DNA of 64,000 bases from the IMG/VR virus record IMGVR_UViG_3300044712_001463; one strand, given 5' to 3'. Source of the DNA: a virus. Lineage: Duplodnaviria; Heunggongvirae; Uroviricota; Caudoviricetes. Shown piece by piece: positions 11,565-30,595 of the stretch. The position numbers and the translations under genes were made by a program. Positions within the stretch are counted from its first letter, which is position 1. Each line of letters begins with the position of its first letter. The notes under the pieces were generated by a model that was not told the DNA's origin, did not search any database, and saw only the letters and a list, made by a program, of their open reading frames with translations.

Positions 11565-11565
11565 T

Positions 11566-12270: not shown

Positions 12271-12725
12271 TTTCTTATAGAGAAAGAGTTATCAATTTAG
12301 TCAACGATCTCTTGAAAGAAAGAGGAATTAATTATTTGCGCCTTAATGACATTAAATTTGAAGAACCGCCAGCGGTTAGGCTCTCAGAATTTCTTTGGAA
12401 CAAACTTAAATGGGTAGGTAATTCAAAAACAGTCCCAGCTGAAGGCATTCTTTTTATTAAGGGCAACCATAAACTAGAGCCAGGTTGGGAAATTCATGAA
12501 AAAACACATCTTGAGAATCCCGTAGAAGAAGTCACAGACAAATATCCAATAAATGAACAAGAGATAAGACCATTTACAGAACAAATAAAGTTTTATTTAA
12601 CCAAGGGGCTTTCTAAATGGCATATTATTGATTTAATAAAGCAGGATTATGGAAATGATTGGAAAAAAGAATGGGAATCAGTTTTCTCGGATTTAATTGA
12701 TTCAATTAGAGAGGGCTCAAAATGA
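12267..12725 (+). CDS. MISYRE-variant family protein (lacks NLFESLNKQ)
   Basis: N-term MISYRERVINL; ATGA coupling. Confidence 0.6.
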   Translation: MISYRERVINLVNDLLKERGINYLRLNDIKFEEPPAVRLSEFLWNKLKWVGNSKTVPAEGILFIKGNHKLEPGWEIHEKTHLENPVEEVTDKYPINEQEIRPFTEQIKFYLTKGLSKWHIIDLIKQDYGNDWKKEWESVFSDLIDSIREGSK

Positions 12726-13174
12726 TTTCCTATAGAGCAAATCTATTTGAGTCTTTGAATAAGCAAATAGATAATAGCATAAAAATCGGAGACATTTTAT
12801 TTAATAAAGAAAAATGCTCTGTTTTATTTTATCAGGCGCCAGAAAATAGCTACTTTTATTCCTTTGCTATAATCTCTCCAAAAACAAGAAGATTTGTTCC
12901 AGAAGAGACCAATGCAAATAATTTGCTAAATGACAAATCGTATAAAAAAATAGGAAATATATTCCAAATTAAAAACGTTGACATCAATAAATGCGCAGCA
13001 GTTCAGTTCAAATCCCTTATTAATCTTGCTAGTCTTTTAACAAATATAAGTGAGGACACGGAAATAACTCCAGAAATTATAATTAATTATCTTAGACACC
13101 ACTATAAATCGGCTAATTTTATATCAAAAGACCATTTTAAAAAATTAAATGAAATATATGGAGAGAAGAAATGA
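12722..13174 (+). CDS. leader family protein
   Basis: MISYRANLFESLNKQIDNS; ATGA coupling. Confidence 0.7.
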   Translation: MISYRANLFESLNKQIDNSIKIGDILFNKEKCSVLFYQAPENSYFYSFAIISPKTRRFVPEETNANNLLNDKSYKKIGNIFQIKNVDINKCAAVQFKSLINLASLLTNISEDTEITPEIIINYLRHHYKSANFISKDHFKKLNEIYGEKK

Positions 13175-13641
13175 TTTCCCACAGAGCAAATCTATTTGAG
13201 TCTTTGAATAAACAGATTAAAGTTAATATAGGAGAGGACTGGATTGAAATAATAAATCCCTCATCCTTTATTAGTCTTGGAATACATGAGTCACTTGCTG
13301 TAAAATCGGTCCCATTTCTAGTGGGATATAAAGACTTGCGTGAAGTAAATAGCGTTGTCACTCTGATGTCGAATCAAGGGATACATGGAAATTGGAGTAA
13401 TCATCAAATAGATATAGAAGGGTTTTTGAAAATACCATTTTCTTCATATAAAAAAATAAACCCACCAATAAAATATGCTTTTAAAATCAATGAAGAGGTT
13501 ATTTACAAAACCAAGAAACAAAAAACAAAAATCATAAGCCATGTAACTGGAGCCCATGGATGGGGAAATCCAGAATATCTTTTGGATATACAAAATATTG
13601 GCGGTCCCCAGGACGAAGAAAGAATCGAGAGAGTAAAATGA
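13171..13641 (+). CDS. leader family protein, subtype A (WIEII...PIKYAFKINEEV)
   Basis: MISHRANLFESLNKQ; ATGA coupling. Confidence 0.7.
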   Translation: MISHRANLFESLNKQIKVNIGEDWIEIINPSSFISLGIHESLAVKSVPFLVGYKDLREVNSVVTLMSNQGIHGNWSNHQIDIEGFLKIPFSSYKKINPPIKYAFKINEEVIYKTKKQKTKIISHVTGAHGWGNPEYLLDIQNIGGPQDEERIERVK

Positions 13642-14135
13642 TTTCCTACAGAGCAAATCTATTTGAGTCTATAAATAAACAGATTACCATACAGCGCGGC
13701 GCTGTATATGAATGCACAGTATCGTTTTGGGCAAAAGCAGTCAACGAATTGATTACTGGAAATGCTAATAGGTCAATCAATACAAAGGTTTCAGAAAAAT
13801 ATTTATGCATTGGAGGCAAAGACGGAAAGTCATTTTTAAGAGAAAAAATGAATTATGGGCTTGTTCTTTCCGTTGATTCTGTTCAATTAAAAAATAACTT
13901 TAAAAAAATAGGACAATTTAATCTAGATAAATTTAAAAAAGGTGATGAGGTAATTTGGAGTTCTGAAAAGTTTATTTTCTTGGATTATGGATTAAATCCA
14001 GATGGCGAATTAAAAAGTTACTTAATATACAAAAAAGACTATAGAGATAACTCTGACTTATTATTTCTTTCTCCTTCTGCTAATCCAGATGTCAAATATA
14101 TTAAAAAAGAAGGAGATTCAAATGATCTCCTATAG
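13638..14135 (+). CDS. leader family protein
   Basis: Start at internal ATG 13638 (MISYRANLFESINKQ), listed start overlaps upstream. Confidence 0.7.
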   Translation: MISYRANLFESINKQITIQRGAVYECTVSFWAKAVNELITGNANRSINTKVSEKYLCIGGKDGKSFLREKMNYGLVLSVDSVQLKNNFKKIGQFNLDKFKKGDEVIWSSEKFIFLDYGLNPDGELKSYLIYKKDYRDNSDLLFLSPSANPDVKYIKKEGDSNDLL

Positions 14136-14550
14136 AGTCTCAAATCTATTTGAATCACTCAATAAGCAAATGCCGGAAAAAGCACAAGATGCTCCTGGAA
14201 GCATTTATTGGAATGGGTCCAATGGCAGTCTTTATATTAAACTGTATGGTGATGTTTGGGAGACATATCATTACGATTACGATGAACAGTCTTATAGGCA
14301 ATCTGTTAGTTTCGATGGAGTAGATTTGAACGGATTCAAATATATAGGAAATGTTTTTATTCTGAAGAAAACAAAAATCACTAAAGAAATAAAGGGCATA
14401 AATCTTACAGCCGTAGCAGTATTAGAATTAAAAACATTTTTAAATCGAAATAGAAATAAAATGGATATAGAAAATTTGAAGGAAACTATTAAAAATGCTC
14501 TTTTCACAATAGAGTATTTAGATGGAAAAATGGGGAGCTTTAAACAGTGA
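14122..14550 (+). CDS. leader family protein, subtype C (GSIYWNG)
   Basis: MISYRVSNLFESLNKQ; RBS aaggag. Confidence 0.7.
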   Translation: MISYRVSNLFESLNKQMPEKAQDAPGSIYWNGSNGSLYIKLYGDVWETYHYDYDEQSYRQSVSFDGVDLNGFKYIGNVFILKKTKITKEIKGINLTAVAVLELKTFLNRNRNKMDIENLKETIKNALFTIEYLDGKMGSFKQ

Positions 14551-15047
14551 TTTCCTATAGAACCTCAAATCTATTCGATTCTTTGAATAAACAAGTCCCA
14601 AAAATGATTTTTGGACAGACTTGGATTGAAATTATAGATTATAATCCTTTCATTAAAATGCCAGGAGTATCTAGAGTTGCAAATGGAGATATATTCCTTG
14701 TGTCTTATAGAAGAAGGCGCCATATAATAGAGAAACGTCTAGTGCTAATGGGTTTAAAAGAAGAAAATTTCATATGGGATGAGCATGAATTAAGTGTAGA
14801 AGAATTTAATTCATTGCCAAAAACTTCATATAGAATTGTGCCATCTCCGTTGAATTATAAGTTCAAGATAGGTCAAGAAGTAAGGTATGAAGCACTTATG
14901 TATGGAACAGATATAATACCTTATGGAAAAGTAATTAGTTATGCTACTGGTATTGGAAGAGTTGAAGCAAAGTGTTATTTGGTTGAAAAGTCGCCTCAAG
15001 ATGAGCCAATTTTAGAAGATGAATTAATAGCAATGGGTGAAAAATGA
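14547..15047 (+). CDS. leader family protein, subtype A (FGQTWIEIID...NYKFKIGQEV); GTG start
   Basis: GTGA overlap; MISYRTSNLFDSLNKQ. Confidence 0.65.
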   Translation: MISYRTSNLFDSLNKQVPKMIFGQTWIEIIDYNPFIKMPGVSRVANGDIFLVSYRRRRHIIEKRLVLMGLKEENFIWDEHELSVEEFNSLPKTSYRIVPSPLNYKFKIGQEVRYEALMYGTDIIPYGKVISYATGIGRVEAKCYLVEKSPQDEPILEDELIAMGEK

Positions 15048-15499
15048 TCTCCTATAGAACCTCAAATCTATTTGATTCTTTGAATAAACAAATAAGTCCC
15101 TTTAAACTAGGTGACGTATTTACTGTTAAAGAAAATAAAAATGTAACTCTAAATAGTGGTTTCACAGTTTATTCATCAGGAGAATATATTTATTCTCATA
15201 ATGCAAACGGCAAACTTGTATTTCAAATATGTAGAAATTATAAAGATTATGGACTAGTTGATTTATCAGAAGTAAATATGTTTTTTAATAAAATAGGACA
15301 TGCTGAGTTGTATGGCTTCAAGGTTGGAGACCAAATATCTGCTGGTCAAAAAACCGCTAGCATCGATGGTCTATATATAGCGAGAATAGGGTTTACTATT
15401 GATTCAGGACCCAAATTTACTGCTAGAGCATACTTATCTGATACAAAAGACTCAGAAGTCCCAGTTCATGGATGGGATCTTAAGGATGTAAAACGATGA
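15044..15499 (+). CDS. leader family protein, subtype B (LGDVF...FGFKVGD)
   Basis: MISYRTSNLFDSLNKQ. Confidence 0.7.
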   Translation: MISYRTSNLFDSLNKQISPFKLGDVFTVKENKNVTLNSGFTVYSSGEYIYSHNANGKLVFQICRNYKDYGLVDLSEVNMFFNKIGHAELYGFKVGDQISAGQKTASIDGLYIARIGFTIDSGPKFTARAYLSDTKDSEVPVHGWDLKDVKR

Positions 15500-16362
15500 T
15501 TTCCTACAGAGCAAATCTATTTGAGTCTTTGAATAAGCACCTTGGCGGATTTCGGCTTGGGGATATATTTGAAAATAGCGGAAATTCGCATCATTCGCTT
15601 TTTGTATATTCACATAATGTTTCCAATAAAGCAATTTTTATAAGACAGGACCATTCCCAAGACGTTATGGAAATAGATTTAAAAGAAATAAAAGAAGAAT
15701 CCTTAAAAAACCATAATCTTAAATTTGTTAGACATGGAGATTACCAAGGAATAAAAGTTGGTGACCAATATACTTTGAATGAATTAAATTATTTTGTTAT
15801 TGGGCTTGGATTGAATGAATCAGAAGTAGAAAAATTATATCTCAGTTTAGGCAAAATGATTAATATTACAGAAAAAAACACAGTTAGTGTTGCTAGAGAA
15901 GGAATTGAATTCGCGACTTTACCGACTAAAAAAACCGCAAACCTATTTGATTCTATAAATAAGCATCTACAAACTCAAGTGCCGAAGGAGCCACAGGCTG
16001 GCGACATTTTTTGGAATAAGCACTCAGAGAAGATTTGCATATGTTATGCTCCTAAAAATAGATTTTGGTATAGATGGGCAATAATATCGGGTAATGTTCG
16101 CGTTGACCATCAAGATTATAACTCAGACCTAGAAGGATTTACTTATTTGGGAAATATATTCAAAATTCGTCCCGAAGGTGAGAAATTTAAAAAAGAAGGA
16201 TTTGATGCGTGCGGCTTTGAGGACAGTTCCAATGAGGTGCTAGATTGGGTAAGAAGAACAGGAATTGAAAATGTAACAGGTCAAGGTATTATTCAATTTA
16301 TAAAAGATACTGACAAAATTATATGGAAAAATTCCTCAAGCGGAGACATTCAAGAGCCATGA
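15496..16362 (+). CDS. two-module leader family protein (B-like + C-like); internal motif KKTANLFDSINKHL at ~15937
   Basis: Leader core repeated internally after KK. Confidence 0.7.
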   Translation: MISYRANLFESLNKHLGGFRLGDIFENSGNSHHSLFVYSHNVSNKAIFIRQDHSQDVMEIDLKEIKEESLKNHNLKFVRHGDYQGIKVGDQYTLNELNYFVIGLGLNESEVEKLYLSLGKMINITEKNTVSVAREGIEFATLPTKKTANLFDSINKHLQTQVPKEPQAGDIFWNKHSEKICICYAPKNRFWYRWAIISGNVRVDHQDYNSDLEGFTYLGNIFKIRPEGEKFKKEGFDACGFEDSSNEVLDWVRRTGIENVTGQGIIQFIKDTDKIIWKNSSSGDIQEP

Positions 16363-17222
16363 TCTCCTACAGAGCAAACCTATTTGAATCCTTGAATAAG
16401 TTAAATGTTCCACAACTCGGAGACATAGTTGAGACTATTACACCGAATGGAATAAAAATAGCTGGAATAGTTGCGACTGAGGATGGGGCGGACATTGATA
16501 AATCATATGAAGGGAAAAAAGGATATATCTATGTTTATCAGTTTCATTTCTATGATAAGAGTGGATCAGGATTATTTAGAGTTCCAATAAATAGTTTAAA
16601 AAAAATACCAGGAAAACAATTACCAACAAGACCTAAATATTCACCCGGACAGGAAATTGGTCGTGCAAAAATATTAGCAGTAAATTATTCAACAACTGAT
16701 TATCACTATCTTTGTGATGACAGAGGAAATAACAGGATTTGGGTGTATGAAAGTGATTTTGATAAAATCAAATTAAACAAAAAAGCCAATCTATTTGATT
16801 CCTTAAATAAACAAATAAATCCATTTAAGCCAGGCGATGTCTTCGTTCTCAAAAGCTCGAACTTTTTAAATGGAAAAGAATATCCATCTAATTCAATGTG
16901 GATTTATTCTCACAATAATAAATCCACGGGCTTGGCAGTTATGCAAATGAAGCATAGTGAAGAAGATGTTATTGAGATTAGTACTTCAAAAATAGGCTCC
17001 TTATTTAAATTTGTAAGACACTGCGATTTAATGGGATTCGAAATTGGGGATAAGGTAAGGTCTCCGCATGGTGAAGAATATTATATAAAATCCTTTGGCA
17101 TGAACGAAGTCGGAGATGGACAAGCCAAGGCTTATTGTTATAATTCTTTTCGTGGAATTAATCAAAAAGGATATGCGGATTGTGATGCCCAGTTATCCGA
17201 GTTAAAGAAGGTAAAAGAATGA
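16359..17222 (+). CDS. two-module leader family protein (D + B); internal KKANLFDSLNKQI at ~16785
   Basis: Start at ATG 16359; leader repeated internally. Confidence 0.7.
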   Translation: MISYRANLFESLNKLNVPQLGDIVETITPNGIKIAGIVATEDGADIDKSYEGKKGYIYVYQFHFYDKSGSGLFRVPINSLKKIPGKQLPTRPKYSPGQEIGRAKILAVNYSTTDYHYLCDDRGNNRIWVYESDFDKIKLNKKANLFDSLNKQINPFKPGDVFVLKSSNFLNGKEYPSNSMWIYSHNNKSTGLAVMQMKHSEEDVIEISTSKIGSLFKFVRHCDLMGFEIGDKVRSPHGEEYYIKSFGMNEVGDGQAKAYCYNSFRGINQKGYADCDAQLSELKKVKE

Positions 17223-17581
17223 TCTCCTACAGAGCAAATCTATTTGAGTCTCTTCAGAAACAAGTGCCTGTAAAATTTACTACAGGGGATATTATTTATA
17301 TTCCAAACAAAGAAATAGGTGTTTATTATAATGAAAATAGGATGTTTGTTCTTGATAGTGTCTTTGACAATAGAAGACATTCAATTCAAAACTTATTACC
17401 AGGCACTATTGATTCTAGAATAAATTGTCCTAAAGTAGCTTCAAATATAAATCAAAACTATGGCTTTCACTTTACTAACCTTGTTGTGAAATATAATCTA
17501 CATGGAAAAAACGTAGACACAAATATACAAAGATTAAAAGAAATGGCCAAAGACTTTGAAAATGAAAATTTCGAGGCATAA
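17219..17581 (+). CDS. leader family protein (MISYRANLFESLQKQ)
   Basis: ATGA coupling. Confidence 0.7.
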   Translation: MISYRANLFESLQKQVPVKFTTGDIIYIPNKEIGVYYNENRMFVLDSVFDNRRHSIQNLLPGTIDSRINCPKVASNINQNYGFHFTNLVVKYNLHGKNVDTNIQRLKEMAKDFENENFEA

Positions 17582-17583
17582 GA

Positions 17584-18558
17584 ATGATCTCCCATAGAGC
17601 AAATTTATTTGAGTCTATAAATAAACAAATGCCAAAAGTTGTTTTTGGACAAACTTGGATTGAGATAATTGACCCTAAGCCTTTCAATGAAATTTCTGAT
17701 TCTGATAACTACAAATCCAAACAAGTTTATTTACTTGGGTATGCTGGAATCGAATATATTGATGCACATAGAATTCAATTAATGGGAATAACCGATGAGA
17801 CACAACTTTGGGCAGAACATGAGATGGAAGAGGATAATTTTAATAAAATACCAAAAACAGCTTATAGAATAATATCATCACCATTACAATACAAATATAA
17901 AATAGGACAGCTAGTTTATAGTGATAGACAAGGGAACATATGGGAGATAGTAGGTTTTGTAACTGGAGAGCATTCTCCTGAATCAAAGGAATATTTGTGC
18001 AAAGATGTTGTAAGAGATGGTTTAGATACTGTTGTGCGAGAACAAGTAATATATGATCAATTAAAAAAATTAGGTCCAGCCAAAAAAGAGATTCGCAATG
18101 CAAATCTATTTGAATCTCTTAACAAGCATACAAATGCTTATCAGCCTGGGGATGTATTTGAAGCCAAAGGAACAAAGATAGTTAATGGGCTTTGGCATAT
18201 CTCAACAAAATATAGATATGTTTTTTCTCATAAAACTCTCCTAGGTAATATCATAATGCAAAGAGGCGGACACTCAAATGATTGGTCTGTCTTAAGCCTA
18301 GACCAAATAAAAGAATATTTTATTAAAGTTGGTCATGTAGAACTTTATGGATTCAAAGTAGGTGACTTTATACCGAAAGAACCTAATGCCTCCGAATCAG
18401 TATTGAGAAGAGAAATTATTGAAAAGTATCTTATAAGAATAGGTCTTGATTCAAATGACCTTAATTTAGCTAGAGGTTATTTCTCTCCTGAAAAAAATTC
18501 TGATGTGGCTACAGATGGCGTTGCTTTATTATTTATAAAGGACATAAAAAAACAATGA
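17584..18558 (+). CDS. two-module leader family protein (A + B); internal RNANLFESLNKH at ~18100
   Basis: MISHRANLFESINKQ; FGQTWIEIID. Confidence 0.7.
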   Translation: MISHRANLFESINKQMPKVVFGQTWIEIIDPKPFNEISDSDNYKSKQVYLLGYAGIEYIDAHRIQLMGITDETQLWAEHEMEEDNFNKIPKTAYRIISSPLQYKYKIGQLVYSDRQGNIWEIVGFVTGEHSPESKEYLCKDVVRDGLDTVVREQVIYDQLKKLGPAKKEIRNANLFESLNKHTNAYQPGDVFEAKGTKIVNGLWHISTKYRYVFSHKTLLGNIIMQRGGHSNDWSVLSLDQIKEYFIKVGHVELYGFKVGDFIPKEPNASESVLRREIIEKYLIRIGLDSNDLNLARGYFSPEKNSDVATDGVALLFIKDIKKQ

Positions 18559-19034
18559 TCTCCTACAGAGCAAATCTATTTGAGTCACTTCAGAAGCATA
18601 TAAATCTTTATACACCTGGAGATTTATTTGAATCTATTGTTGAATATAAGGAATTCCCACATCAAGGCGATATCGCTGGTAATATTAGAAAGGAAAAAGG
18701 CTACGCTTACCTTTTTTCACATATGAGCGTTGGTAAAATGATTTTAGTTCAAAGAAATCATGGGGCGAATATTATTGACCTAGACCCAAAAGATGTAAAA
18801 AAATATTTAAAGATTATAAGTCATATTGATTTTCTAGGATTCAAGGTTGGTGATGAAATTGTTCAAACTAATTATGAATTAACTGGCAGGCATTATAAAA
18901 TAACCTGCCTAGGACTAAGGTCTGATAATACACCTAAAGCCTATTGTCATGATGCAAGAGATAATGTTTTATATAGATGGGATCCTACTAGAAGTTGCAC
19001 TGAAATAGATCTTTCATTATATAAGAAGGTATAA
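18555..19034 (+). CDS. leader family protein, subtype B
   Basis: MISYRANLFESLQKH; GFKVGDEI. Confidence 0.7.
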   Translation: MISYRANLFESLQKHINLYTPGDLFESIVEYKEFPHQGDIAGNIRKEKGYAYLFSHMSVGKMILVQRNHGANIIDLDPKDVKKYLKIISHIDFLGFKVGDEIVQTNYELTGRHYKITCLGLRSDNTPKAYCHDARDNVLYRWDPTRSCTEIDLSLYKKV

Positions 19035-19038
19035 TCAA

Positions 19039-19491
19039 ATGATTTCTTACAGAACCTCAAATCTATTTGACTCCATTAAGAAACAAATGAATCCATTTAA
19101 GCCTGGAGATGTATTCACGGCTAAAGAAAAATTTCGTTTCCGTGATAGATTTGTTATAGAGCCAGGAATTAATTATATTTTTTCGCATATGAAAGATGAT
19201 AAAATTGTAATGCAAGAACAGGCAGAATGGAGAAGTTGGGGAGAGATTTCTCCTCAAGAAGTCATGAAGTATTTTAATAAAGTAGGAGAAGCAAACTTAT
19301 TTGGCTTTAAGGTAGGAGATAAAGTTGATATTCCTAGTGGAAGTGTAGTAAATCCACGTATAAATGGTTTATATATCATAAGAATAGGGCTTGCTGGTGG
19401 AGAGCCGTTTTCTGCAAGAGGATATTTTAATAGAGGAAAAGAATCAGAAACTCCAGATTATGGATATGATCTTAAGGACATAAAAAAATGA
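19039..19491 (+). CDS. leader family protein, subtype B
   Basis: MISYRTSNLFDSIKKQ; FGFKVGDKV. Confidence 0.7.
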   Translation: MISYRTSNLFDSIKKQMNPFKPGDVFTAKEKFRFRDRFVIEPGINYIFSHMKDDKIVMQEQAEWRSWGEISPQEVMKYFNKVGEANLFGFKVGDKVDIPSGSVVNPRINGLYIIRIGLAGGEPFSARGYFNRGKESETPDYGYDLKDIKK

Positions 19492-19934
19492 TTTCTTACA
19501 GAGCAAATTTATTTGAATCACTTAATAAGCAATTAAATCTCGGTCTTCAAGATGGAGACTTTATAGAATTTAGGGGAAGAACCTATGTTGTCATGCAAAA
19601 TTATATATGGCAACAAGGGAAAGAATTGTTTTTAGAATGTATGGACGATACTGGTAAAAATATTGCGATTAAAAAAGAAGACCTTGAAAAGGAAAAATAT
19701 AAAAAAATAAATCCGCCAATAAAGCCTGCACACAAAGTAGGAGACATGATTGATGGTTGGAAGATAATATCAATTCTATATTCAATTGGTTCTAAAAAAT
19801 TTCAATATGCCGCTATAAATGATGAATTAAAAGAAGCCGTAGAGTTTTATGATTTTGAAGATTTGAAAAGAAAGAAAAGGTCTAATTATAGTAGCCATTA
19901 TTACACAACTTATAAAGAATGGACTTCAAGATGA
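19488..19934 (+). CDS. leader family protein
   Basis: MISYRANLFESLNKQ; PPIKPAHKVGDMI. Confidence 0.7.
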   Translation: MISYRANLFESLNKQLNLGLQDGDFIEFRGRTYVVMQNYIWQQGKELFLECMDDTGKNIAIKKEDLEKEKYKKINPPIKPAHKVGDMIDGWKIISILYSIGSKKFQYAAINDELKEAVEFYDFEDLKRKKRSNYSSHYYTTYKEWTSR

Positions 19935-20374: not shown

Positions 20375-20874
20375 TTTCTTACAGAGCAAATTTATTTGAG
20401 TCTTTGAATAAACAAATACCAAAGGTCATCTTTGGGCAAACCTGGATTAAGATAATTAATCCTGAATTATTCAATAAATATTCAAATGCCTTGTCTAGTC
20501 TCCAGACTTATAAAGCTGGCGAAGTTTATCTTATCAGTTCTACTGCAAGGCTAAAGAAATCTGGTAAGATAATACTCATGGGTATTGTAAGTACAATGTG
20601 GGCTTCGCATATTTTAAAGGAAGAAGACTTTAATAAAATACCCAAACAAGATTATTTAATAGTACCATCTCCATTAGACTATAAATACAAAATAGGACAA
20701 AAGGTTAGATTCGGTGCCGTAAGAATAGAATATAAGATTATCTATTTCGCCACGGGCAATAAGCGCCCAGGCTCTAAGGATTATGCTATACAATCTGCCG
20801 AGGAAGAGCGTAATAATGATTTTTCTATAACCTCTGAGGAGACTTTAACTCCTTGGGAGGAGAGCGCACAATGA
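20371..20874 (+). CDS. leader family protein, subtype A
   Basis: MISYRANLFESLNKQIPKVIFGQTWIKII. Confidence 0.7.
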   Translation: MISYRANLFESLNKQIPKVIFGQTWIKIINPELFNKYSNALSSLQTYKAGEVYLISSTARLKKSGKIILMGIVSTMWASHILKEEDFNKIPKQDYLIVPSPLDYKYKIGQKVRFGAVRIEYKIIYFATGNKRPGSKDYAIQSAEEERNNDFSITSEETLTPWEESAQ

Positions 20875-21356
20875 TTTCTTACAGAGCCAACCTATTTGAG
20901 TCCCTTAATAAACAAATACCAAGAGTTGTCTTTGGACAAACGTGGATTGAGGTAATTGATCCAAAATCATTTGAACCATTTATCTCAGAGCGATACGCCA
21001 ACAAAGGCGTGCCATTTTTAGTGGGAGCACCATATATAGGTGATTTCCAAAGAAAAAGAATAACACTAATGGCGGCTAGTGGTTCTGCGGCTGATTGGAG
21101 TAATCGTAGTTTATCATTTGAAGATTTCCAAAAAATACCAAAGCAAGCCTACAAAATAGTGCCCTCTCCAATACCATATAAATTTAAAATTGGCGACGAG
21201 GTCATGTCAAATGTAGTTGGCAATAAAGGAAAAGTTGTTGCTTATTATTGTAATGGACAGAAAAGTGAAAACAAGCAAGCATATTGGATACAATTAAATG
21301 ATGGGACTAAGATGCAGAAATATGAAGAACATATTACAGGAGTATCTAATTCATGA
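20871..21356 (+). CDS. leader family protein, subtype A
   Basis: Start at ATG 20871; FGQTWIEVID...PYKFKIGDEV. Confidence 0.7.
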   Translation: MISYRANLFESLNKQIPRVVFGQTWIEVIDPKSFEPFISERYANKGVPFLVGAPYIGDFQRKRITLMAASGSAADWSNRSLSFEDFQKIPKQAYKIVPSPIPYKFKIGDEVMSNVVGNKGKVVAYYCNGQKSENKQAYWIQLNDGTKMQKYEEHITGVSNS

Positions 21357-21817
21357 TTTCCTACAGAGCAAATTTATTTGATTCCTTGAATAAACAAATA
21401 AATCCCTATAAGTCAGGAGATTTATTTAAGGCTATTGATTTTTTTAATATTAATGGCATGATAGATAAAAGAGGTAGAAATGTTAATAAAAATGATATAT
21501 TTATTCTGTCACACAAAATAGGAAATAAGTGTGTAATGCAAAGACAAGACTGTGAAGGTTGTGTTGTTTTATTTGACAAGAAGCAAATAGATGAACATTT
21601 TAAGTTATATAAACATGAGGATTTTGGACAATTTTCCATAGGGCAGAAGGTTTGCCCAAGAGATTTGTCAGATCGTCGCGCAGGAGAAGCAAGATATATC
21701 ATTAGATTTGGATTAACAGGAGAATTAGAACCTAAAGCCTATTTAGCATGGAGTCCTAGCGAAAATACTGCGGATGCTGGAGACTATAAACTTATAGATT
21801 TGAGGATTATAGAATGA
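21353..21817 (+). CDS. leader family protein, subtype B
   Basis: MISYRANLFDSLNKQ. Confidence 0.7.
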   Translation: MISYRANLFDSLNKQINPYKSGDLFKAIDFFNINGMIDKRGRNVNKNDIFILSHKIGNKCVMQRQDCEGCVVLFDKKQIDEHFKLYKHEDFGQFSIGQKVCPRDLSDRRAGEARYIIRFGLTGELEPKAYLAWSPSENTADAGDYKLIDLRIIE

Positions 21818-22479
21818 TTTCCTACAGACATTCAAACCTATTTGAATCCATTAAGAAGCAAATGCCCGCGAATCCAAAAATCGGGGATATTTATTATTGT
21901 CCTACAAGAAAATCCTTTGCTATTTTAAGATCGATAAGGGATATGTCCTGGGCCATCGTATATCGGGTAAGGGATAATAGATATACTACATGGAATAATA
22001 AGTCTTTAAACATCCCGGGTAGTATGTCCAAAATAGGAAATATGTTCGAATTAAAAAATTTGGAAATCCCTGAGCCGCCATATATAATATCATCTTTATC
22101 TTTATCATCTATGGTAAGAAAAATACGACAAGGCCAAGACCCTACAAAAGAATGGGTTCTTGATGAATTTAAAAACCTAACAAGCGCAGAAATCGCAAAA
22201 GAGGTCTTAGGCCAAGAGCATTATGAAAGAGAAGATAAAAAGACAGTAGCCAACCTATTTGAATCTCTTAATAAACATATAAATCATAAATATGTTATTA
22301 TAGGTCGGTATAATCCTAAGTCTCCTGATATATATTACTTTGGAAAAGAAAGAGGAACAAAGACATATACCTACGACATACAACTAGCAAAGGTATTCAA
22401 TAGTAGGGCAGAGGCCGAGAAAATTTTGAACAGTATATCGGATAAAAGATATTACAGAATCATAGAGGTCAATTCATGA
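21814..22479 (+). CDS. two-module leader family protein; internal KKTVANLFESLNKHI at ~22249
   Basis: MISYRHSNLFESIKKQ. Confidence 0.7.
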   Translation: MISYRHSNLFESIKKQMPANPKIGDIYYCPTRKSFAILRSIRDMSWAIVYRVRDNRYTTWNNKSLNIPGSMSKIGNMFELKNLEIPEPPYIISSLSLSSMVRKIRQGQDPTKEWVLDEFKNLTSAEIAKEVLGQEHYEREDKKTVANLFESLNKHINHKYVIIGRYNPKSPDIYYFGKERGTKTYTYDIQLAKVFNSRAEAEKILNSISDKRYYRIIEVNS

Positions 22480-23387
22480 TTTCTTACAGAGCAAACCTAT
22501 TTGAGTCCCTTCAGAAGCAAATGCCTGTCAATCTAGGAGATATAGTTGAAACTACTGCTACTGGTGGATATAGAATAGTTGGAATAGTTGCCACTAGAGA
22601 AGGGCAAGATATAAGTGACAAAAACAAAGGTGAAAAGGGATATGTATATATTTATGGATTTAATACAAAACTCAAGGAAGGTAATGGATTATTTCTAGTG
22701 CCAATAAGTAGTTTGAAAAAAATACCAGGTGAGCAATTGCCAACAAGACCCAAATACTCCCCAGGCCAAACGATTGGGAACAACATAAAAATCATTGCGG
22801 TTAATTATGCAAAAGATGATTATAGTTATCTTTGTGATAGTAGTGAAGATGGTCGGCGTTGGGGTCGGTGTTGGTATGATGAAAAAGAAATCGATCAAAT
22901 GCAATTATCCAAGAAGGCCAACCTATTTGAATCTATTAAGAAACAAATACCTAATGTTATCTTTGGAGAGACTTGGATTGAGATAATCGATCCAAAGCCA
23001 TTTAATTCGGCTAACATGCATAATTCATTTAATAATGGAGATGTATATTTAGTATCTTATCATGATAGAGAAAATATAGAAAGAGGATTGCTTTATTTAA
23101 TGGGAATAACTAGCAGGACATTCTCATGGGGTGAACACGAACTTACAAAAGAGCAATTTAATAAAATTCCTAAATCAGCTTATAAAGTAATACCATCGCC
23201 ATTAGAATATAAATATAAGATAGGCCAAGAGTTTAATGATTATGAACTAACTTTTAAAATAATCGCCCTCGTAACTGGATACAATGGAATAGAGCATCAA
23301 GATTATCTATGCGAGCAAGTAGGCTCTAGGGAAACTAGAATTTACAAACAAGAGGTTATTGATGGGCTTATGGGAGAGAACCAATGA
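22476..23387 (+). CDS. two-module leader family protein (D + A); internal KKANLFESIKKQI at ~22917
   Basis: MISYRANLFESLQKQ; FGETWIEIID. Confidence 0.7.
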   Translation: MISYRANLFESLQKQMPVNLGDIVETTATGGYRIVGIVATREGQDISDKNKGEKGYVYIYGFNTKLKEGNGLFLVPISSLKKIPGEQLPTRPKYSPGQTIGNNIKIIAVNYAKDDYSYLCDSSEDGRRWGRCWYDEKEIDQMQLSKKANLFESIKKQIPNVIFGETWIEIIDPKPFNSANMHNSFNNGDVYLVSYHDRENIERGLLYLMGITSRTFSWGEHELTKEQFNKIPKSAYKVIPSPLEYKYKIGQEFNDYELTFKIIALVTGYNGIEHQDYLCEQVGSRETRIYKQEVIDGLMGENQ

Positions 23388-23848
23388 TATCCTACAGGGC
23401 AAATCTATTCGAATCACTTAATAAGCAAAATCCAGTAATCTTTGGACAGACCTGGATTAAAATAATCGACTCTAAGCCTTTCCTTGAAATTCCAAATGTA
23501 AAGGATATTAGTGATGGAGATATTTTTCTTGTTTCTTATAAAAGTAAAGTTGATATGAGGGATGGTATTATATCACTTATGGGACTGAAGGTCGAAAACC
23601 TTATATGGGATAATCATAGTTTAAGAATAGATAGATTTAAATCTATATCTAGATCCGCATATAGAATCGTGCCATGCCCATTGAATTATAAATACAAAAT
23701 AGGGCAGACGGTTTATACTGGTCGCCCTGACAAGGTAATATCCCTTGCAACTGGCATCGGAGAACCAGAAACAAAATGTTATTTATTAGAACATAGTGCC
23801 CCTTATCCTATCCAAGAAAGTCAATTATCGGAAAGGGCTAGGAAATGA
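23384..23848 (+). CDS. leader family protein, subtype A
   Basis: MISYRANLFESLNKQNPVIFGQTWIKII. Confidence 0.7.
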   Translation: MISYRANLFESLNKQNPVIFGQTWIKIIDSKPFLEIPNVKDISDGDIFLVSYKSKVDMRDGIISLMGLKVENLIWDNHSLRIDRFKSISRSAYRIVPCPLNYKYKIGQTVYTGRPDKVISLATGIGEPETKCYLLEHSAPYPIQESQLSERARK

Positions 23849-24336
23849 TCTCTTACCGAGCAAATCTATTTGAGTCTCTTAATAAGCAAATAAATACCCT
23901 TAGGCCAGGGGACATACTTGAGCCTAAGTCTAATATTATGGAGGCTATTATTTCCAAAAAAGGGATAAGATGGGTTTTAGCTCCTAATGATATGTACAAC
24001 ATATCGCATATAAAAGGGAATTATTCAGTATTCGTAATAAACGGCAGTAGACAGACTTGGATTGAATTAACGCCAGAAGAAATACATAAATACTATAACA
24101 AAATAGGTGAGGCCAACCTATATGGATTTAAGGCAGGGGATAAGATTCCAATTTCTTGTGTTGAGAGAATGACAAATGTTCGGACACCTACAAATGAACT
24201 ATTTTTATATGAAATAATGGTTGTTGGAAAAGAAAGCCCACTATCAATTGGATTATTAGGAGCGGAAAATAGATTAGACCAAGCTTTTGCAACCTATCTT
24301 CCCCTAGAAGATCTAGCAAAGAGGTGTGGTAAATGA
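23845..24336 (+). CDS. leader family protein, subtype B
   Basis: MISYRANLFESLNKQ; YGFKAGDKI. Confidence 0.7.
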   Translation: MISYRANLFESLNKQINTLRPGDILEPKSNIMEAIISKKGIRWVLAPNDMYNISHIKGNYSVFVINGSRQTWIELTPEEIHKYYNKIGEANLYGFKAGDKIPISCVERMTNVRTPTNELFLYEIMVVGKESPLSIGLLGAENRLDQAFATYLPLEDLAKRCGK

Positions 24337-24794
24337 TCTCCTATAGAAATTCAAACCTATTTGAATCTATTAAGAAACAAATACTTCCTACTCCTGGGAT
24401 TATTTATCAGCCTATTGAAGATAAGCCTTGGCCTAACCCCTATTTAAATGTTAGTTTTTCAAAACAATGTTTTTATTTGTTCTCGCATATTAGGGATGGT
24501 AAGATGGTTCTTATTAGGAGAATGGCAGGAGATTGGGTTTTCGAAGTAAGTCATGATGAGATAAATAGTATTTTAAAGCCCGTAGGCCAAGCCGATTTAA
24601 AGGGTTTCAAAGTCGGGGATAAGATTCGCCGTAAAGGATTAAGTGAAATATTTATAATAGTAGGATTCGGCTTGACTGGCGATAATACCCCGAAAGCCTA
24701 TTGTATTCAAGAAGGAGCAGATATTGAACCTATCTGGGACTTCCATTTTACTAGTGCAATTTCATTAATGGTAATGGAAAAGGTATCCCAATGA
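24333..24794 (+). CDS. leader family protein, subtype B (PWPNP)
   Basis: MISYRNSNLFESIKKQ; KGFKVGDKI. Confidence 0.7.
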   Translation: MISYRNSNLFESIKKQILPTPGIIYQPIEDKPWPNPYLNVSFSKQCFYLFSHIRDGKMVLIRRMAGDWVFEVSHDEINSILKPVGQADLKGFKVGDKIRRKGLSEIFIIVGFGLTGDNTPKAYCIQEGADIEPIWDFHFTSAISLMVMEKVSQ

Positions 24795-25267
24795 TCTCCT
24801 ACCGGACCTCAAACCTATTCGATTCTATTAAGAAACAAATACCCTTTAGGTCAGGGGACATACTCAAACCTATTTCACCTACCAAAATGGATTGGAACGG
24901 ATGGGAGATAAATCCCGATAGGCCATACAATGTTTCGCATATAACGGAGAATGGATTAGTAGTCGTTCAAAATGGATTCTTATCTAGTGATTTCGCCAAA
25001 CTAACACTAGAAGATGCAAAATTGCTATTTGAAAAAATAGGTGAGTCCAACCTCTATGGTTTCAAGGTAGGGGATATGGTCTGTCCTGAATATGTTCGCG
25101 GGGTAAGGCAAACTGAAAAGACTTGTTATTACCTAAATAAAATACTTGTCAACGCAGCAGGTAAAGCATTTGGATTCTTTACTAAAGATAATAATAATGA
25201 TGCTAAGAAATTTGATTCATATTGTGAATTATCTAAATTGCAAAAACAAGGCGGTTCTGTCCAGTAA
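24791..25267 (+). CDS. leader family protein, subtype B
   Basis: MISYRTSNLFDSIKKQ; YGFKVGDMV. Confidence 0.7.
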   Translation: MISYRTSNLFDSIKKQIPFRSGDILKPISPTKMDWNGWEINPDRPYNVSHITENGLVVVQNGFLSSDFAKLTLEDAKLLFEKIGESNLYGFKVGDMVCPEYVRGVRQTEKTCYYLNKILVNAAGKAFGFFTKDNNNDAKKFDSYCELSKLQKQGGSVQ

Positions 25268-25584
25268 TCGGGTTTTACCCCGTAGGCCAAAGCATTAATT
25301 TTGTCCGGCGATTGGAAACATTGTAAAACTTTATAAGAAACTAGTAGTGTGTGGTAAAGTAATAAAAGCCCATAGGCCAAAGGATAAATTGAGTAATTGT
25401 TGCAAATGGTCTATTGTGGTTTATTGTGGGTAGGAATAGGATAGATTGGATAAGAGGGGAGGTGTAGTGTCATTCACCTCTCTTAATAAGATCTACAAAT
25501 CACCACCCTACCCTGGTTTGTTAAGTCATATTAAGTTTTGTCTATCGTTAATTAATAAATCTTAATAAGAAGGATTTATACAAC

Positions 25585-26118
25585 ATGATAAGTTATAGGA
25601 ATGCAAATATATTTGAATCATTAAAGAAGCAGATGTATCCTCTTGTTGGAGGCATATATATTTGTTTAGAGGATAAGCCCTGGCCTAACCCACGGAACAG
25701 GCATTTGGCTATTATAGAAGGTGAGAGATATATCTTTTCACATGTAAGAGATGGCAAGATGGTTCTAGTGCAAAAGATGCAGGGTGGGAATGTTTTCGAG
25801 GTAGGTCCAGGGGATATAAAAAAATACTTTAGTTTTCTTGACCAGGGTGATTTAAGAGGTTTCAAAGTAGGAGACATGGTTGTAAGGGGAGACGTTGAGG
25901 TTCTTGAAGTTCCAGGTAGAATGCATGAGGCCGGCAGGTCAATTCCTAGATATAAAATAATGGCATTCGGATTAGGAATAAGACTAGCACCCAAGGCATA
26001 TTGTTTAAGAGAGGGCTCTGGAACTGAAGAGGGAATTGGACTAGAATATTTGAAATGGAGTTTCGCCCATTGCGACTCAGAACTTCTTTTAGAACAGATA
26101 AAGAAGGCTGACAAATGA
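25585..26118 (+). CDS. leader family protein, subtype B (PWPNP); first gene after internal non-coding gap
   Basis: MISYRNANIFESLKKQ. Confidence 0.7.
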   Translation: MISYRNANIFESLKKQMYPLVGGIYICLEDKPWPNPRNRHLAIIEGERYIFSHVRDGKMVLVQKMQGGNVFEVGPGDIKKYFSFLDQGDLRGFKVGDMVVRGDVEVLEVPGRMHEAGRSIPRYKIMAFGLGIRLAPKAYCLREGSGTEEGIGLEYLKWSFAHCDSELLLEQIKKADK

Positions 26119-26591
26119 TCTCTTACAGAGCAAATCTATTCGAATCTATTAATAAGATAAATGCGCCTAGGCCCGGGGTTGTTTATGAAGGTATTGTGAA
26201 TAAGGATTGGCCTAACCCGAGGCACAATGATATTGGGATTACAGAAGGGGAGCAATATATTTTCTCTCATATGAGAAATGGCAAGATGGTTCTTGTTAGA
26301 AAAATGGCTGGTTCTTGGATTTTTGAAGTAAGTCCTAACGAGATAAATAAATACTTTAAACCCATAGGCCAAGCAAACTTACAGGGGTATGAAATAGGAG
26401 ATAAGATATATAGTGAAATGTATGGCAATGGAACCATAACAGGGTTCGGCCTAGCGGATATTGAAAGAATAAAAGCATATATAATTAGAGAAGGGATTGT
26501 TGAGGATGAGGATGACAAATGGGATTTTATATCTGGTAACGGTCACGATGATCCTTTATTGAGCAGAGTAGAAAAAGGATGGAAGAAATGA
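26115..26591 (+). CDS. leader family protein, subtype B
   Basis: MISYRANLFESINKI; KPIGQANLQGYEIGDKI. Confidence 0.7.
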   Translation: MISYRANLFESINKINAPRPGVVYEGIVNKDWPNPRHNDIGITEGEQYIFSHMRNGKMVLVRKMAGSWIFEVSPNEINKYFKPIGQANLQGYEIGDKIYSEMYGNGTITGFGLADIERIKAYIIREGIVEDEDDKWDFISGNGHDDPLLSRVEKGWKK

Positions 26592-27073
26592 TTTCTTATC
26601 GTAAGTCCAACTTATTTGAATCCTTAAACAAAATGAACATCTGTAGTCCAGGTGATATTTTTGAAGGCATTGCAAATATGCCCTGGCCTCATAGCGAAAA
26701 GCAGGTATGGATATGGAAGGGAACTCGTTATATATTTTCACATATGTATAATGGTAAGATGGTTCTCATACAGAAGAACGAAGGTAGCAGGATTTTCTTT
26801 GTATCACCTAGCGAATTAAATAAATATTTTAAGCGCATAGGCCATGCTGATTTTCAAGGACTTAAAGTAGGGGATTATGTTTATACTGAGAGCAGGGAGA
26901 CTGGGACTTTCAGGCATTATATAATAACTGCCCTGGGCCTATACGATGATGACAGTCCGATGCCCTGGTGTAGGTGGATACATGATTCAGTTCCATTTAA
27001 TCCAGAGAGGCCAACAAACAGAGCAGAAAGATTTTACTTAAAAGAGATTATTAAGAATCCACATCAGGGGTAG
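26588..27073 (+). CDS. leader family protein, subtype B
   Basis: Start at ATG 26588; MISYRKSNLFESLNKM. Confidence 0.7.
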   Translation: MISYRKSNLFESLNKMNICSPGDIFEGIANMPWPHSEKQVWIWKGTRYIFSHMYNGKMVLIQKNEGSRIFFVSPSELNKYFKRIGHADFQGLKVGDYVYTESRETGTFRHYIITALGLYDDDSPMPWCRWIHDSVPFNPERPTNRAERFYLKEIIKNPHQG

Positions 27074-27078
27074 GCCAA

Positions 27079-27618
27079 ATGATTTCTTATCGTGCAAATT
27101 TATTTGAATCCTTGAACAAGGTTGTCAAAAAGATTACTGAGTCTGGGCAATACTGCGTAGGCCCAGACGGAATTGTTTATTTTGTTAATGCTGGCGAAAA
27201 CATAGGGGACTTTTATTTAATGTCCGAAAAGGGTAATGTTACTAAGACCACGAACCTTGATGAGATTAATAAGAATTATCAATATACGACACCTAGGCCA
27301 GGGTGGGTAACTAAGAAAGTCAAAGACGGAACTCGATATGCTCATTATCCTCATAGGGCTGGGGATAAATATGAGGCAAGAGGTGCTGACGGAAGCTATA
27401 GGCTTATATGGATTTCATGCGGTTGCTATATAACTTCATTTAAGAATTTTTCTAAGATGATGTTAAGTTATAGAGCTGCAACTATGCCAAATCCGGAAGC
27501 AAGGAAGCCAGAAAGAAAACCTAGTTCGATAACGCACGAAGATGTTCTCATCAAAGATATATTGGATGATAATAATCAATGGGTTAATAATGATACAAGA
27601 GGCCCAGGGGGATACTGA
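27079..27618 (+). CDS. leader family protein
   Basis: MISYRANLFESLNKV; internal MMLSYRAA echo. Confidence 0.65.
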   Translation: MISYRANLFESLNKVVKKITESGQYCVGPDGIVYFVNAGENIGDFYLMSEKGNVTKTTNLDEINKNYQYTTPRPGWVTKKVKDGTRYAHYPHRAGDKYEARGADGSYRLIWISCGCYITSFKNFSKMMLSYRAATMPNPEARKPERKPSSITHEDVLIKDILDDNNQWVNNDTRGPGGY

Positions 27619-27621
27619 TAA

Positions 27622-28059
27622 ATGATTTCTTATCGTGCAAATTTATTTGAATCCTTAAAGAAGCAAATCAACCCTGGGCCTCCTAGGGTTGGTGATTTCT
27701 TTTGGGATAGCGAGAACCAGGTATTTATTCTCAAGACATGTGACCAGAACAATTCAAAATATGTTTTCGGACAGGCTTATAAAGATAGGGAAGATGGTGA
27801 GTTCCTATATAAATTCAGAGATAATGCTACTATCACTGGCAGACGTTTGGGCAATGTTCTAGATATGAATCCTAAAGCGGCTGAGGCTTTTAAAAGGAAT
27901 GAGATAAATTGCATAGAAACATTCAAGTTCATACAAAACCTTTGTGAATGGCTTGACAAGGCAAATATAACCGAGCGTGGTATCATAGAATATGTAAGAG
28001 CCTATAAGTTCGGCTGGATTAAAATAACTGCTGGTGGTGAAGCAGGAGTAGAACTATGA
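27622..28059 (+). CDS. leader family protein, subtype C (GDFFWDSEN)
   Basis: MISYRANLFESLKKQ. Confidence 0.7.
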   Translation: MISYRANLFESLKKQINPGPPRVGDFFWDSENQVFILKTCDQNNSKYVFGQAYKDREDGEFLYKFRDNATITGRRLGNVLDMNPKAAEAFKRNEINCIETFKFIQNLCEWLDKANITERGIIEYVRAYKFGWIKITAGGEAGVEL

Positions 28060-28502
28060 TTTCTTACCGGGCAAACTTATTTGAATCCTTGAACAGGGTG
28101 GTGGCTAAACAGTATCAGCCTGGGGATGTATTTAAGGAAAGTGGTATTGCTGATAGTTTTTCCATCTTAATGATTGAACGGGTAGGTAGAGAAAGAGGTG
28201 GACAAACTCTTTATTGGCTTCATAGAAAAGGTCTTCCCGATCAGAACATAAAGCTTACCCAGAAACAATTAGATGACAAGGCTAGTTTTAATTATATTAG
28301 GCACTTGGACTTGGGTGACTGGAAGGTAGGAGACTTTTGTAAATTAAACGAATCCTTCCAGGGAGATCAAGAAACATATAAAATAGAAACAATATTCCTA
28401 GATAACTTCGATATGGTCAGGGTAGGCTTAAATAAAAACTGGAGTTATCATAATGTTGCTGAAAAAACCGTGCTGCTTGTCCATATAAAAAAGCCTTCCT
28501 AG
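28056..28502 (+). CDS. leader family protein (last array member)
   Basis: MISYRANLFESLNRV; ATGA coupling. Confidence 0.7.
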   Translation: MISYRANLFESLNRVVAKQYQPGDVFKESGIADSFSILMIERVGRERGGQTLYWLHRKGLPDQNIKLTQKQLDDKASFNYIRHLDLGDWKVGDFCKLNESFQGDQETYKIETIFLDNFDMVRVGLNKNWSYHNVAEKTVLLVHIKKPS

Positions 28503-30493: not shown

Positions 30494-30570
30494 GGGAACC
30501 TAGCTCAATTGGTTAGAGCAAGCGACTCATAATCGCTAGGTTCAGGGTTCAAGTCCCTGGGTTCCCACCA
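30494..30570 (+). tRNA. tRNA with CAT anticodon (Met elongator or Ile2/lysidine substrate)
   Basis: Cloverleaf, acceptor GGGAACC/GGTTCCC, loop CTCATAA, CCA encoded; directly downstream of tilS and promoter 30455. Confidence 0.8.
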
Positions 30571-30595
30571 CCTTTTCTTCTTCTAGGAGTCCGCA

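Follow-up and report, generated by a model that had tools for sequence, protein, structure and literature searches.

Why do 31 neighboring phage genes begin with the same 45 nucleotides, and is it the DNA or the encoded peptide that is being kept alike? The question is raised by a 64,000-nt stretch of the Caudoviricetes record IMGVR_UViG_3300044712_001463 (hereafter, the window), in which a shared 5′ box recurs along an array of small genes. A first-pass annotation had favored the DNA, proposing that repeated homologous recombination or gene conversion at a fixed box, in the manner of pilin, vls or integron cassettes, kept these starts near-identical. We find instead that the box is conserved at the amino-acid level by purifying selection on the peptide, and that it encodes the leader of a tandemly expanded phage family that is unusual in size (31 genes, 37 boxes, ~20 kb) and has no relatives in the databases searched.

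A shared leader at the start of 31 co-directional genes

The array comprises 31 full-box genes arranged head to tail on the + strand (8615-28502), and translation of the region gives these genes a common 15-residue start with the consensus MISYR(x)ANLF(E/D)S(L/I)(N/K)K(Q/H). A six-frame search of the window for N[LI]F[ED]S[LI] returned 37 copies altogether, all on the + strand and within 8633-28074, with 31 being N-terminal and 6 internal. Information content is restricted to +1 to +45 and drops to background level on either side, and the sharply bounded box described by the first-pass annotation was recovered at the start of 29/29 genes in 12722-28502. The consensus from that annotation also held up, with 6 copies at ≤3 mismatches from it versus 0 in 100 shuffles, while its range of 12722-28100 was too narrow: all genes there carry the box, but the array begins upstream with full-box genes at 8615 and 9031.

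Conservation of the box acts on the peptide

To compare the box with the gene bodies that follow it, we used Nei-Gojobori-type counts of the proportions of synonymous (pS) and nonsynonymous (pN) differences, with bodies aligned inside paralogue families. Box pS was 0.66 over all 37 copies (0.52-0.69 per family) versus 0.63-0.75 in the bodies, whereas box pN was 0.12 versus 0.44-0.56, or approximately four-fold lower, and the leader is ~90% identical compared with 21-37% for bodies inside families. Synonymous divergence is thus equal in the first 45 nt and the remainder, which is the outcome of this dN/dS comparison that the first-pass annotation had itself named as contradicting its proposal. 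Because box pS equals body pS and only pN is low, purifying selection on a 15-residue peptide, not array-wide homogenization of the DNA, explains the box.

Codon usage gives the same picture at finer grain. Comparing codons only where two copies encode the same residue, and taking the expected identity from codon usage, we found two-fold codons to be saturated in both the box (0.60 observed versus 0.63 expected) and the bodies (0.63 versus 0.63), while four- to six-fold codons were more alike than expected in the box (0.49 versus 0.27) and much less so in the bodies (0.33 versus 0.30). This excess sits mainly at three third positions (Ser3 as TCY in 30/31, Ala/Ser6 as xCA in 32/37, Leu8 as YTA in 37/37), and for Ser it is due in part to the barrier between TCN and AGY codons. 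The assertion that even synonymous sites are conserved is therefore wrong overall and describes chiefly these three positions. G+C-biased conversion was considered and rejected, as the shift in third-position G+C content (0.33 in the box versus 0.26 in the bodies) is too small and too inconsistent among codons.

Nor are the boxes near-identical as nucleotide sequences. N-terminal boxes differ on average at 9.7/45 nt (78% identity), they lie a mean of 5.8 mismatches (range 1-11) from the earlier consensus, with only the 6 copies noted above coming within 3, and the longest identical run between two boxes has a median of 11 nt and a maximum of 37 nt, with runs of ≥23 nt in 17/666 box pairs (2.6%). 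At the peptide level, I2, S3, R5, N7, F9 and S11 are invariant in 31/31 N-terminal copies, while the core-motif residues N, F and S are retained in 37/37 copies, among them the internal ones, which play no part in initiation.

A tandemly expanded family with a bipartite leader

In an all-against-all BLASTP comparison, the bodies of the 37 modules formed four families, B (14 members), A (7), C (5) and D (3), and left 8 singletons. That the bodies are unrelated at the DNA level, as first annotated, is only partly true: most families cannot be aligned with one another, but paralogous families do exist and some body pairs share 66-71% DNA identity over 300-520 bp; in one example, 19037-19531 (gene 19039-19491 plus the next box) matches 15042-15539 (gene 15044-15499 plus the next box) at 67%. 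Profile comparisons made with the box removed showed weak co-linear similarity between A and B (hhalign P=1.4e-3 over 89 columns), a PGDIF motif as the only feature common to B and C, and no similarity between A and C. The family order C-A-B recurs at 12722-14135, at 14122-15499 (with a C-like singleton as C) and at 19931-21817 (as C-A-A-B), and together the paralogous bodies, co-directional array and recurrent order are those of a tandemly duplicated multigene family.

The encoded proteins are ~150 aa long and mostly basic (pI ≥7.6 in 26/33 listed genes). AlphaFold2 models of genes 15044 and 22476 predict confident barrels for families B and A (predicted local distance difference test score, pLDDT, ~90-95) and assign pLDDT <50 to residues 1-15 in either model, which suggests, softly given alignments of 9-12 paralogues, that the leader is disordered and lies outside the predicted fold. 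Families A, B and D, those covered by the models, are SH3/Tudor-like beta-barrels; such folds are generic binding modules, and the array encodes diversified small domains of this binding type.

The leader is used in two parts, each polypeptide having MISYR once and each module having its own ANLF(E/D)S..K. The 3′ 30 nt of the box (ANLF[ED]S[LI]xK[QH]) recur inside longer genes at 11662, 15937, 16785, 18100, 22249 and 22917, and 5/6 of these internal copies fall in two-module genes (15496, 16359, 17584, 21814, 22476) where a Lys-rich linker replaces MISYR, while the copy at 11662 retains ISYR after an N-terminal extension of ~25 aa. Conversely, MISYR without the remainder of the box starts two more genes, at 4468 and 12267. 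One additional codon (MISYRxSNLF) is present in 10 box copies.

The box also joins consecutive genes. All 33/33 MISYR genes start with (A/G)TGA and 24/32 junctions are ATGA start/stop overlaps, so that the box provides the stop codon of the preceding gene, and the genes are translationally coupled. Because each gene begins with sequence that also ends the previous one, the box constitutes a frame-preserving junction. Reading the sequence further, TTT-GAR in the box yields a third-frame TGA, and TAT-AGA inside the box of gene 14122 yields the TAG that ends gene 13638 through a 14-nt overlap. Shine-Dalgarno (SD)-like tetramers precede 28/33 MISYR gene starts and sit in non-conserved sequence upstream of the box.

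A candidate sorting or processing signal

What might such a leader do? The reading that we place first, and judge about evenly poised between right and wrong, takes the 45-nt box as the coding sequence of a selected N-terminal leader on a tandemly expanded family, with the leader acting as a sorting or processing signal and the ATGA-box as the junction between genes. MISYR would then supply a targeting function needed once per polypeptide, for example into a prohead or to a common partner, whereas NLF(E/D)/S, needed once per module, would be recognized and probably cleaved; the invariant N-L-F-(E/D)-S resembles a protease site spanning P4-P1′, and cleavage at internal copies would free the modules of the fusion genes. 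The array would thereby send a variety of small binding proteins along one route, and occasional unequal or local recombination at the box would have duplicated, fused and re-paired modules and spread box variants among neighbors.

A narrower version, in which the leader is a packaging and cleavage signal like the capsid-targeting sequence (CTS) of phage T4, is suggested by analogy and we hold it only tentatively. Narrower again, and in our view unlikely, would be a capsid-loading and cleavage signal that arose in a phage lineage with no relation to T4, which would make the array by far the largest known leader-tagged, virion-delivered arsenal (31 genes, 37 beta-barrel modules), with two-module precursors cut internally, the MISYR-bearing HExxH peptidases co-targeted, and the ATGA-box serving as the junction at which modules are duplicated, fused and re-paired.

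Several points weigh against a sorting or processing signal. The array family has no relative in any database searched, and neither virion nor protease nor T4-type genes occur in the window. Only 3/10 residues are identical to the T4 leader, for which chance could suffice, and conservation extends five residues (SLNKQ) beyond the putative cleavage point, which a T4 model does not require. The residues of the putative cleavage motif are L-F-E in 27/37 copies, I-F-E in 1/37 and L-F-D in 9/37, a weak, three-residue match to (L/I)-x-E, and Asp, which blocks processing in T4, thus occupies P1 in 24% of copies. The disorder of the leader is a soft prediction because the model alignments are shallow, and the TCY, xCA and YTA third positions are kept beyond what the peptide needs, leaving a small nucleotide-level residue that this reading does not explain.

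Two further kinds of protein are of note. HExxH motifs occur three times among open reading frames (ORFs) of ≥80 aa in the whole window, and two of these are in the MISYR-only genes (HEMTHL at 4858-4872 in gene 4468-4971; HEKTHL at 12495-12509 in gene 12267-12725), whose products may, judging from these motifs, be small zinc peptidases with a common leader. The two proteins are not significantly similar to one another; gene 4468 has a weak Peptidase_M91 match under the cut-off (E=0.005), and a homologue search with it was without result. Embedded in the array, a 432-aa protein (10266-11564) resembles scaffolding or internal-head proteins in its composition.

Alternative readings of the leader

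Rather less probable than the reading placed first, and about as probable as its packaging and cleavage version, is that the leader is a short linear motif for one common cytoplasmic partner unrelated to the virion, with the barrels bringing different cargos or targets to it. Candidates for such a partner would include a host target or chaperone, an adaptor for a protease or for degradation, and a hub protein of the phage. A peptide that is predicted to be disordered, is strongly conserved, carries amphipathic L8, F9, L12 and I16 together with invariant N7, F9 and S11, and recurs once per module in fusions is what one would expect of a binding motif, and it would fit with barrels of a generic binding type and with the lack of structural genes among the window ORFs scanned. 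This alternative leaves unexplained, however, why MISYR is restricted to true N-termini and why MISYR alone sits on two unrelated proteins, and no partner is identifiable; in silico it is indistinguishable from the packaging model.

We regard as improbable the proposal of the first-pass annotation that the 45 nt are themselves kept alike by, or for, repeated conversion or recombination in a pilin-, vls- or integron-like cassette array. Support for it comes from structure among the box variants. Pairwise box distances have a variance of 9.2 versus 5.0 under column shuffling (p<2e-4), indicating haplotypes, and 6 box pairs differ at ≤3 sites versus 0.74 expected by the same shuffling (p=6e-4). 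The farther apart two boxes lie in the array, the more they differ (rho 0.34, Mantel p=2e-4; rho 0.41 for different-family pairs), and adjacent boxes differ at 8.2 sites versus 9.7 expected. This linkage and neighbor similarity is independent of the bodies: family has no effect on box distance (9.66 versus 9.74 differences, p=0.41), box and body distances inside families are uncorrelated (rho -0.06 in B, -0.3 in A), and 14/15 of the closest box pairs span different body families with flanks at random identity. As examples, the box of 15044 (family B) differs at 3/45 nt from that of a neighboring family-A gene, the boxes of adjacent genes 27079 and 27622 share the 37-nt identical run despite unrelated bodies, and genes 16359 and 22476 share a D module, a homologous K(L/Q)(N/S)KK linker and an internal box but continue into a B body and an A body, respectively. 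The excess identity of four- to six-fold codons in the box, not seen in the bodies, points in the same direction.

The remaining observations go against DNA-level maintenance. Synonymous divergence is equal in box and bodies with two-fold sites saturated, the peptide is retained in internal copies, and each copy is a complete, independently translatable ORF, with no silent cassettes, no attC-like site outside +1 to +45 and no integrase among the ORFs scanned. With a median identical run of 11 nt and so few pairs reaching 23 nt, present-day boxes are also poor substrates for homologous recombination. Both array ends carry CGN/TCT-TAY variants, a sharing that a simple neighbor model does not predict, and regional codon-choice effects may account for part of the neighbor similarity. 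Taken together, neighbor likeness, haplotypes, box/body discordance and the re-pairing of D argue for occasional local conversion or unequal recombination with box junctions, and such exchange is likely, as a by-product or facilitator rather than the reason for box conservation. What survives of the original proposal is thus limited local exchange, while the synonymous signature on which it relied is absent. More generally, a conserved 5′ nucleotide box in a gene array does not by itself imply gene conversion; comparing pS with pN tells peptide selection from DNA homogenization, and box/body discordance can still expose low-level exchange.

Could the 15-mer instead be merely the slowest-evolving structural element of one old domain family, such as an N-terminal helix on the barrel, with no signaling role? 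The weak co-linear A/B similarity, the PGDIF motif common to B and C, and the prediction that families A, B and D are all small beta-barrels speak for shared ancestry of this kind. We nonetheless think it quite improbable, as the leader is modelled at pLDDT <50 versus ≥90 for the barrels, A and C are without similarity, the same leader heads eight singleton bodies, MISYR also starts two non-family proteins, and the contrast between a 90% identical leader and 21-37% identical bodies is extreme.

Last, we give hardly any weight to a role of the box at the RNA level, as an element for translation initiation or for termination-reinitiation (coupling) at every ATGA junction, which would suit the (A/G)TGA starts, the overlapping junctions, the predicted lack of structure and the few retained A-rich third positions (xCA, YTA), because the same peptide occurs in six internal copies distant from any start codon, variation at two-fold synonymous sites is unconstrained, the SD-like motifs belong to non-conserved sequence upstream of the box, and RNAalifold over -30 to +60 found no base pairs, with neither consensus structure nor covariation across junctions. 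Sigma-70-like promoter sites are not enriched in the array (71 found versus 82 expected), and a resemblance to the Bacteroidetes -7 promoter motif was rejected on spacing when reading the sequence.

Gene-by-gene organization of the array

All box genes and MISYR genes described below lie on the + strand. Outside the array, the MISYR-only gene 4468-4971 continues with RESSSN in place of the ANLFES part. The array opens with a family D gene (8615-9034; box 8615-8659) and a singleton (9031-9486; box 9031-9078, the extra-codon variant MISYRNANLFES), and is then broken at 9479-12725 by five genes that do not start with a full box. These are 9479-9841, 9838-10269, the 432-aa protein gene (10266-11564; E/K/D-rich, low-complexity, with neither a box nor a family match), the gene whose internal box keeps ISYR (11566-12270; GISYREANLFESINK, core at 11662-11691), and the second MISYR gene, in which the box is degenerate (12267-12725; ERVINLVNDLLKE).

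From there the array resumes with the first copy named by the first-pass annotation, a family C gene (12722-13174; box 12722-12766), followed by an A gene (13171-13641; box 13171-13215), a B gene (13638-14135; box 13638-13682), the C-like singleton that overlaps its upstream neighbor by 14 nt (14122-14550; box 14122-14169), an A gene with a GTG start and the extra codon (14547-15047; box 14547-14594), and the B gene that was modelled (15044-15499; box 15044-15091). Two-module genes come next, combining B+C (15496-16362; box 15496-15540, internal 15937-15966) and D+B (16359-17222; box 16359-16403, internal 16785-16814), then a singleton (17219-17581; box 17219-17263) and an A+B gene (17584-18558; box 17584-17628, internal 18100-18129).

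The central part holds two B genes (18555-19034, box 18555-18599; 19039-19491, box 19039-19086), a singleton (19488-19934; box 19488-19532), a C gene (19931-20374; box 19931-19975), two A genes (20371-20874, box 20371-20415; 20871-21356, box 20871-20915) and another B gene (21353-21817; box 21353-21397). Two further two-module genes pair C with a short singleton (21814-22479; box 21814-21861, internal 22249-22278) and D with A (22476-23387; box 22476-22520, internal 22917-22946; AlphaFold2-modelled), after which an A gene (23384-23848; box 23384-23428) leads into three B genes (23845-24336, box 23845-23889; 24333-24794, box 24333-24380; 24791-25267, box 24791-24838). For gene 23845, the JGI gene caller began at an internal Met, giving 132 aa versus 163 aa.

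The only sizeable non-coding gap between box genes (317 bp, 25268-25584) may be an internal regulatory region. Beyond it are three B genes, the first with the most divergent box (25585-26118; box 25585-25632, MISYRNANIFES, with Ser3 encoded by AGT), the second at 26115-26591 (box 26115-26159), and the third with the right-end haplotype TCT TAT CGT ... TTA TTT GAA TCC (26588-27073; box 26588-26635). The array closes with a singleton (27079-27618; box 27079-27123), a C gene (27622-28059; box 27622-27666) and a B-like singleton (28056-28502; box 28056-28100). Inside gene 27079-27618, at 27460-27480, the peptide MMLSYRAAT resembles MISYRA with differing codons (AGT TAT AGA GCT), and may be the decayed box of an old fusion or a product of chance.

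Genome context and searches for relatives

The genome is probably that of a large phage and the window its accessory region, an assignment that follows from context because no hallmark structural gene lies in the window; the ORFs scanned included no prohead protease or structural gene. The window carries mostly small co-directional ORFs, and its genes, some with PHROG matches, include an MnmA-like thiouridylase, a TilS-like PP-loop protein, a Dam methylase, and Band 7, HEAT-repeat, AAA and radical-SAM proteins. Its best tblastn match is a 735-kb uncultured phage record, followed by crAss-like phages. G+C content is ~32% in the array, ~32-38% at 4-28 kb and 56-64 kb, and ~50% at 30-54 kb, where ORFs are short, ambiguous and on both strands. 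ARAGORN identified seven tRNAs in a cluster at 30494-35554 (two Met(CAT), Arg(CCT), Arg(CCG), Lys(TTT), Gly(GCC), Phe(GAA)), and Rfam added a weak eighth tRNA-like match (35481-35554, 32 bits) and found nothing but tRNAs.

Other features of the window are as follows. The TilS-like PP-loop gene (29843-30475) is directly upstream of the first tRNA-Met(CAT), and the MnmA-like gene (1009-2031) overlaps at its end with a small HNH endonuclease ORF (2028-2399; Pfam HNH/HNH_5 by Logan annotation). In the downstream AT-rich block, one paralogue pair is Cys-rich (59079-59297 and 60814-61194; IICKCGH..W(K/R)HD..C(R)xCDCK, then coiled-coil) and another has a signal-like N-terminus (56934-57155 and 61360-61584; ..MLRV(T/W)WT..). 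At 53735-55300 the longest ORFs are implausible and His/Pro/Arg/Ser-rich, there is no Rfam match, and G+C falls from ~0.49 to ~0.41 just downstream; the segment probably does not code for protein or was miscalled.

Where compared, Logan contigs from run SRR26046407 are exact matches to the window, with one (L001) being 100% identical to 404-8601. The k=31 Logan assembly stops 14 nt short of the first box gene, and an array gene of family B appears on a separate 919-nt contig (P0002), a break at the array edge that is consistent with splitting of the assembly graph at repeated box 31-mers. An assembly artefact as the source of the array was rejected, as the longest exact repeat is 37 nt, making read-length assembly unambiguous. 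Two Logan fragments from the same run held neither structural genes nor additional box genes.

Relatives of the array were sought widely. A homologue search with a family-B gene returned only the self-match, and an exhaustive profile search over 1.84 billion representatives returned 23 of the window's own genes and one unrelated 2426-aa SH3-repeat protein. Searching IMG/VR by DNA pattern and with two family profiles gave nothing, two scans of metagenome contigs gave 0 matches and 12 unrelated single matches, and a GTDB genome scan gave 94 single chance matches, none with MISYR and none multi-copy. Megablast and tblastn against 50,697 phage records found no relatives, and sequence searches of PHROGs, Pfam, PADLOC, NCBIfam and PDB found no significant match for the array proteins. 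A box-core match does occur in an unrelated gene found mainly in Nitrosomonas (L003, L010-L012 and ~35 other loci), internally and in single copy, as ...ERI(R/K)NLFDSLKKQIRQGYFEL; we treat it as coincidental.

Comparison with known systems

In the pilE/pilS system of Neisseria and the vlsE/vls system of Borrelia, one expressed locus is accompanied by promoterless partial cassettes with long high-identity tracts that serve unidirectional conversion. The present array resembles them in its tandem related coding segments, with short conserved blocks beside variable ones, yet the first-pass analogy fails, in that 31/31 copies here are full ORFs, conserved blocks share a median of 11 identical nt and synonymous sites are not homogenized. 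Because these ORFs have their own start codons and mostly SD-like motifs (28/33), there is no arrangement of an expression site plus silent cassettes. The integron analogy, based on a long co-directional array of small, mostly unrelated ORFs, does not hold either. Beyond the coding 5′ 45 nt nothing is conserved, which leaves no attC-like site, and the 3′ ends lack the attC-type imperfect inverted repeat; Pfam or PHROG scans of flanking ORFs, which did not take in every small ORF, turned up neither an IntI integrase nor attI. Moreover, the genes here overlap by ATGA, which site-specific insertion would not give.

Conotoxin superfamilies, with a conserved signal peptide ahead of a hypervariable mature toxin, offer another likeness, namely a multigene family with a highly conserved N-terminal peptide on fast-diverging bodies. 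Those are eukaryotic genes with exon structure, and their signal region is reportedly conserved at synonymous sites too, whereas synonymous sites here have diverged as much as in the bodies.

Among phages, the giant phages phiKZ and SPN3US encode multiple paralogous head-internal proteins whose propeptides are removed after Glu at S/A-x-E by a gp21-like prohead protease (PMC9026906; PMC5694885, PMC7411985). The array resembles these families in its many paralogues and, if the leader is cut, in cleavage after Glu, and the differences lie in a motif that is here L-F-(E/D) rather than S/A-x-E and a leader that is uniform and 15 aa long rather than a long variable propeptide. The array proteins showed no sequence or fold match to the phiKZ/SPN3US inner-body or ejection proteins.

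The closest parallel is the T4 CTS. The T4 leader is MKTYQEFIAE (doi 10.1101/2021.01.19.427310), in which targeting depends on residues 4 and 7 and processing on residues 8 and 10; a leader with Asp at position 10 still targets but is not processed, and the prohead protease gp21 cleaves after L/I-x-E (PMC9026906). In T-even phages, a leader of 10-19 residues is the sole feature shared by internal proteins such as IPI, IPII, IPIII and Alt, encoded at hyperplastic loci with >30 variants, and T4 Ip1, Ip2 and Ip3 are injected inhibitors, each of a different GmrSD restriction enzyme (PMC12373910, PMC2839356, PMC3012670). MISYRANLFE fits the pattern M..Y...(I/L)xE at M1, Y4, L8 and E10, a short leader likewise heads clustered, otherwise dissimilar, small and mostly basic proteins, and the T4 division into a targeting part and cleavage residues 8/10 parallels the split between MISYR and NLF(E/D)S.

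The two systems also differ. Residues are identical only at M1, Y4 and E10, so homology is not demonstrable, and no CTS or internal-protein homologue was found by PHROG, Pfam or PADLOC, or by tblastn in the 50,697 phage records. Here 31 tagged genes occupy one genome versus three in T4, the bodies form paralogous barrel families, unlike the unrelated T4 proteins, the conserved stretch runs on for five residues after the putative cut, 24% of copies have Asp in place of Glu, and the genes form long ATGA-coupled operons whereas T4-type genes each have their own promoter/stem-loop element. Should the leader be a sorting or processing signal, its 15-mer could serve as a tag for discovering or engineering phage proteins that are packaged or routed together, the 37 small SH3/Tudor-like modules would become candidate host-defence inhibitors, and the T4 strategy of one leader for many cargos would have arisen independently, in a large uncultivated phage, and be scalable to dozens of cargos.

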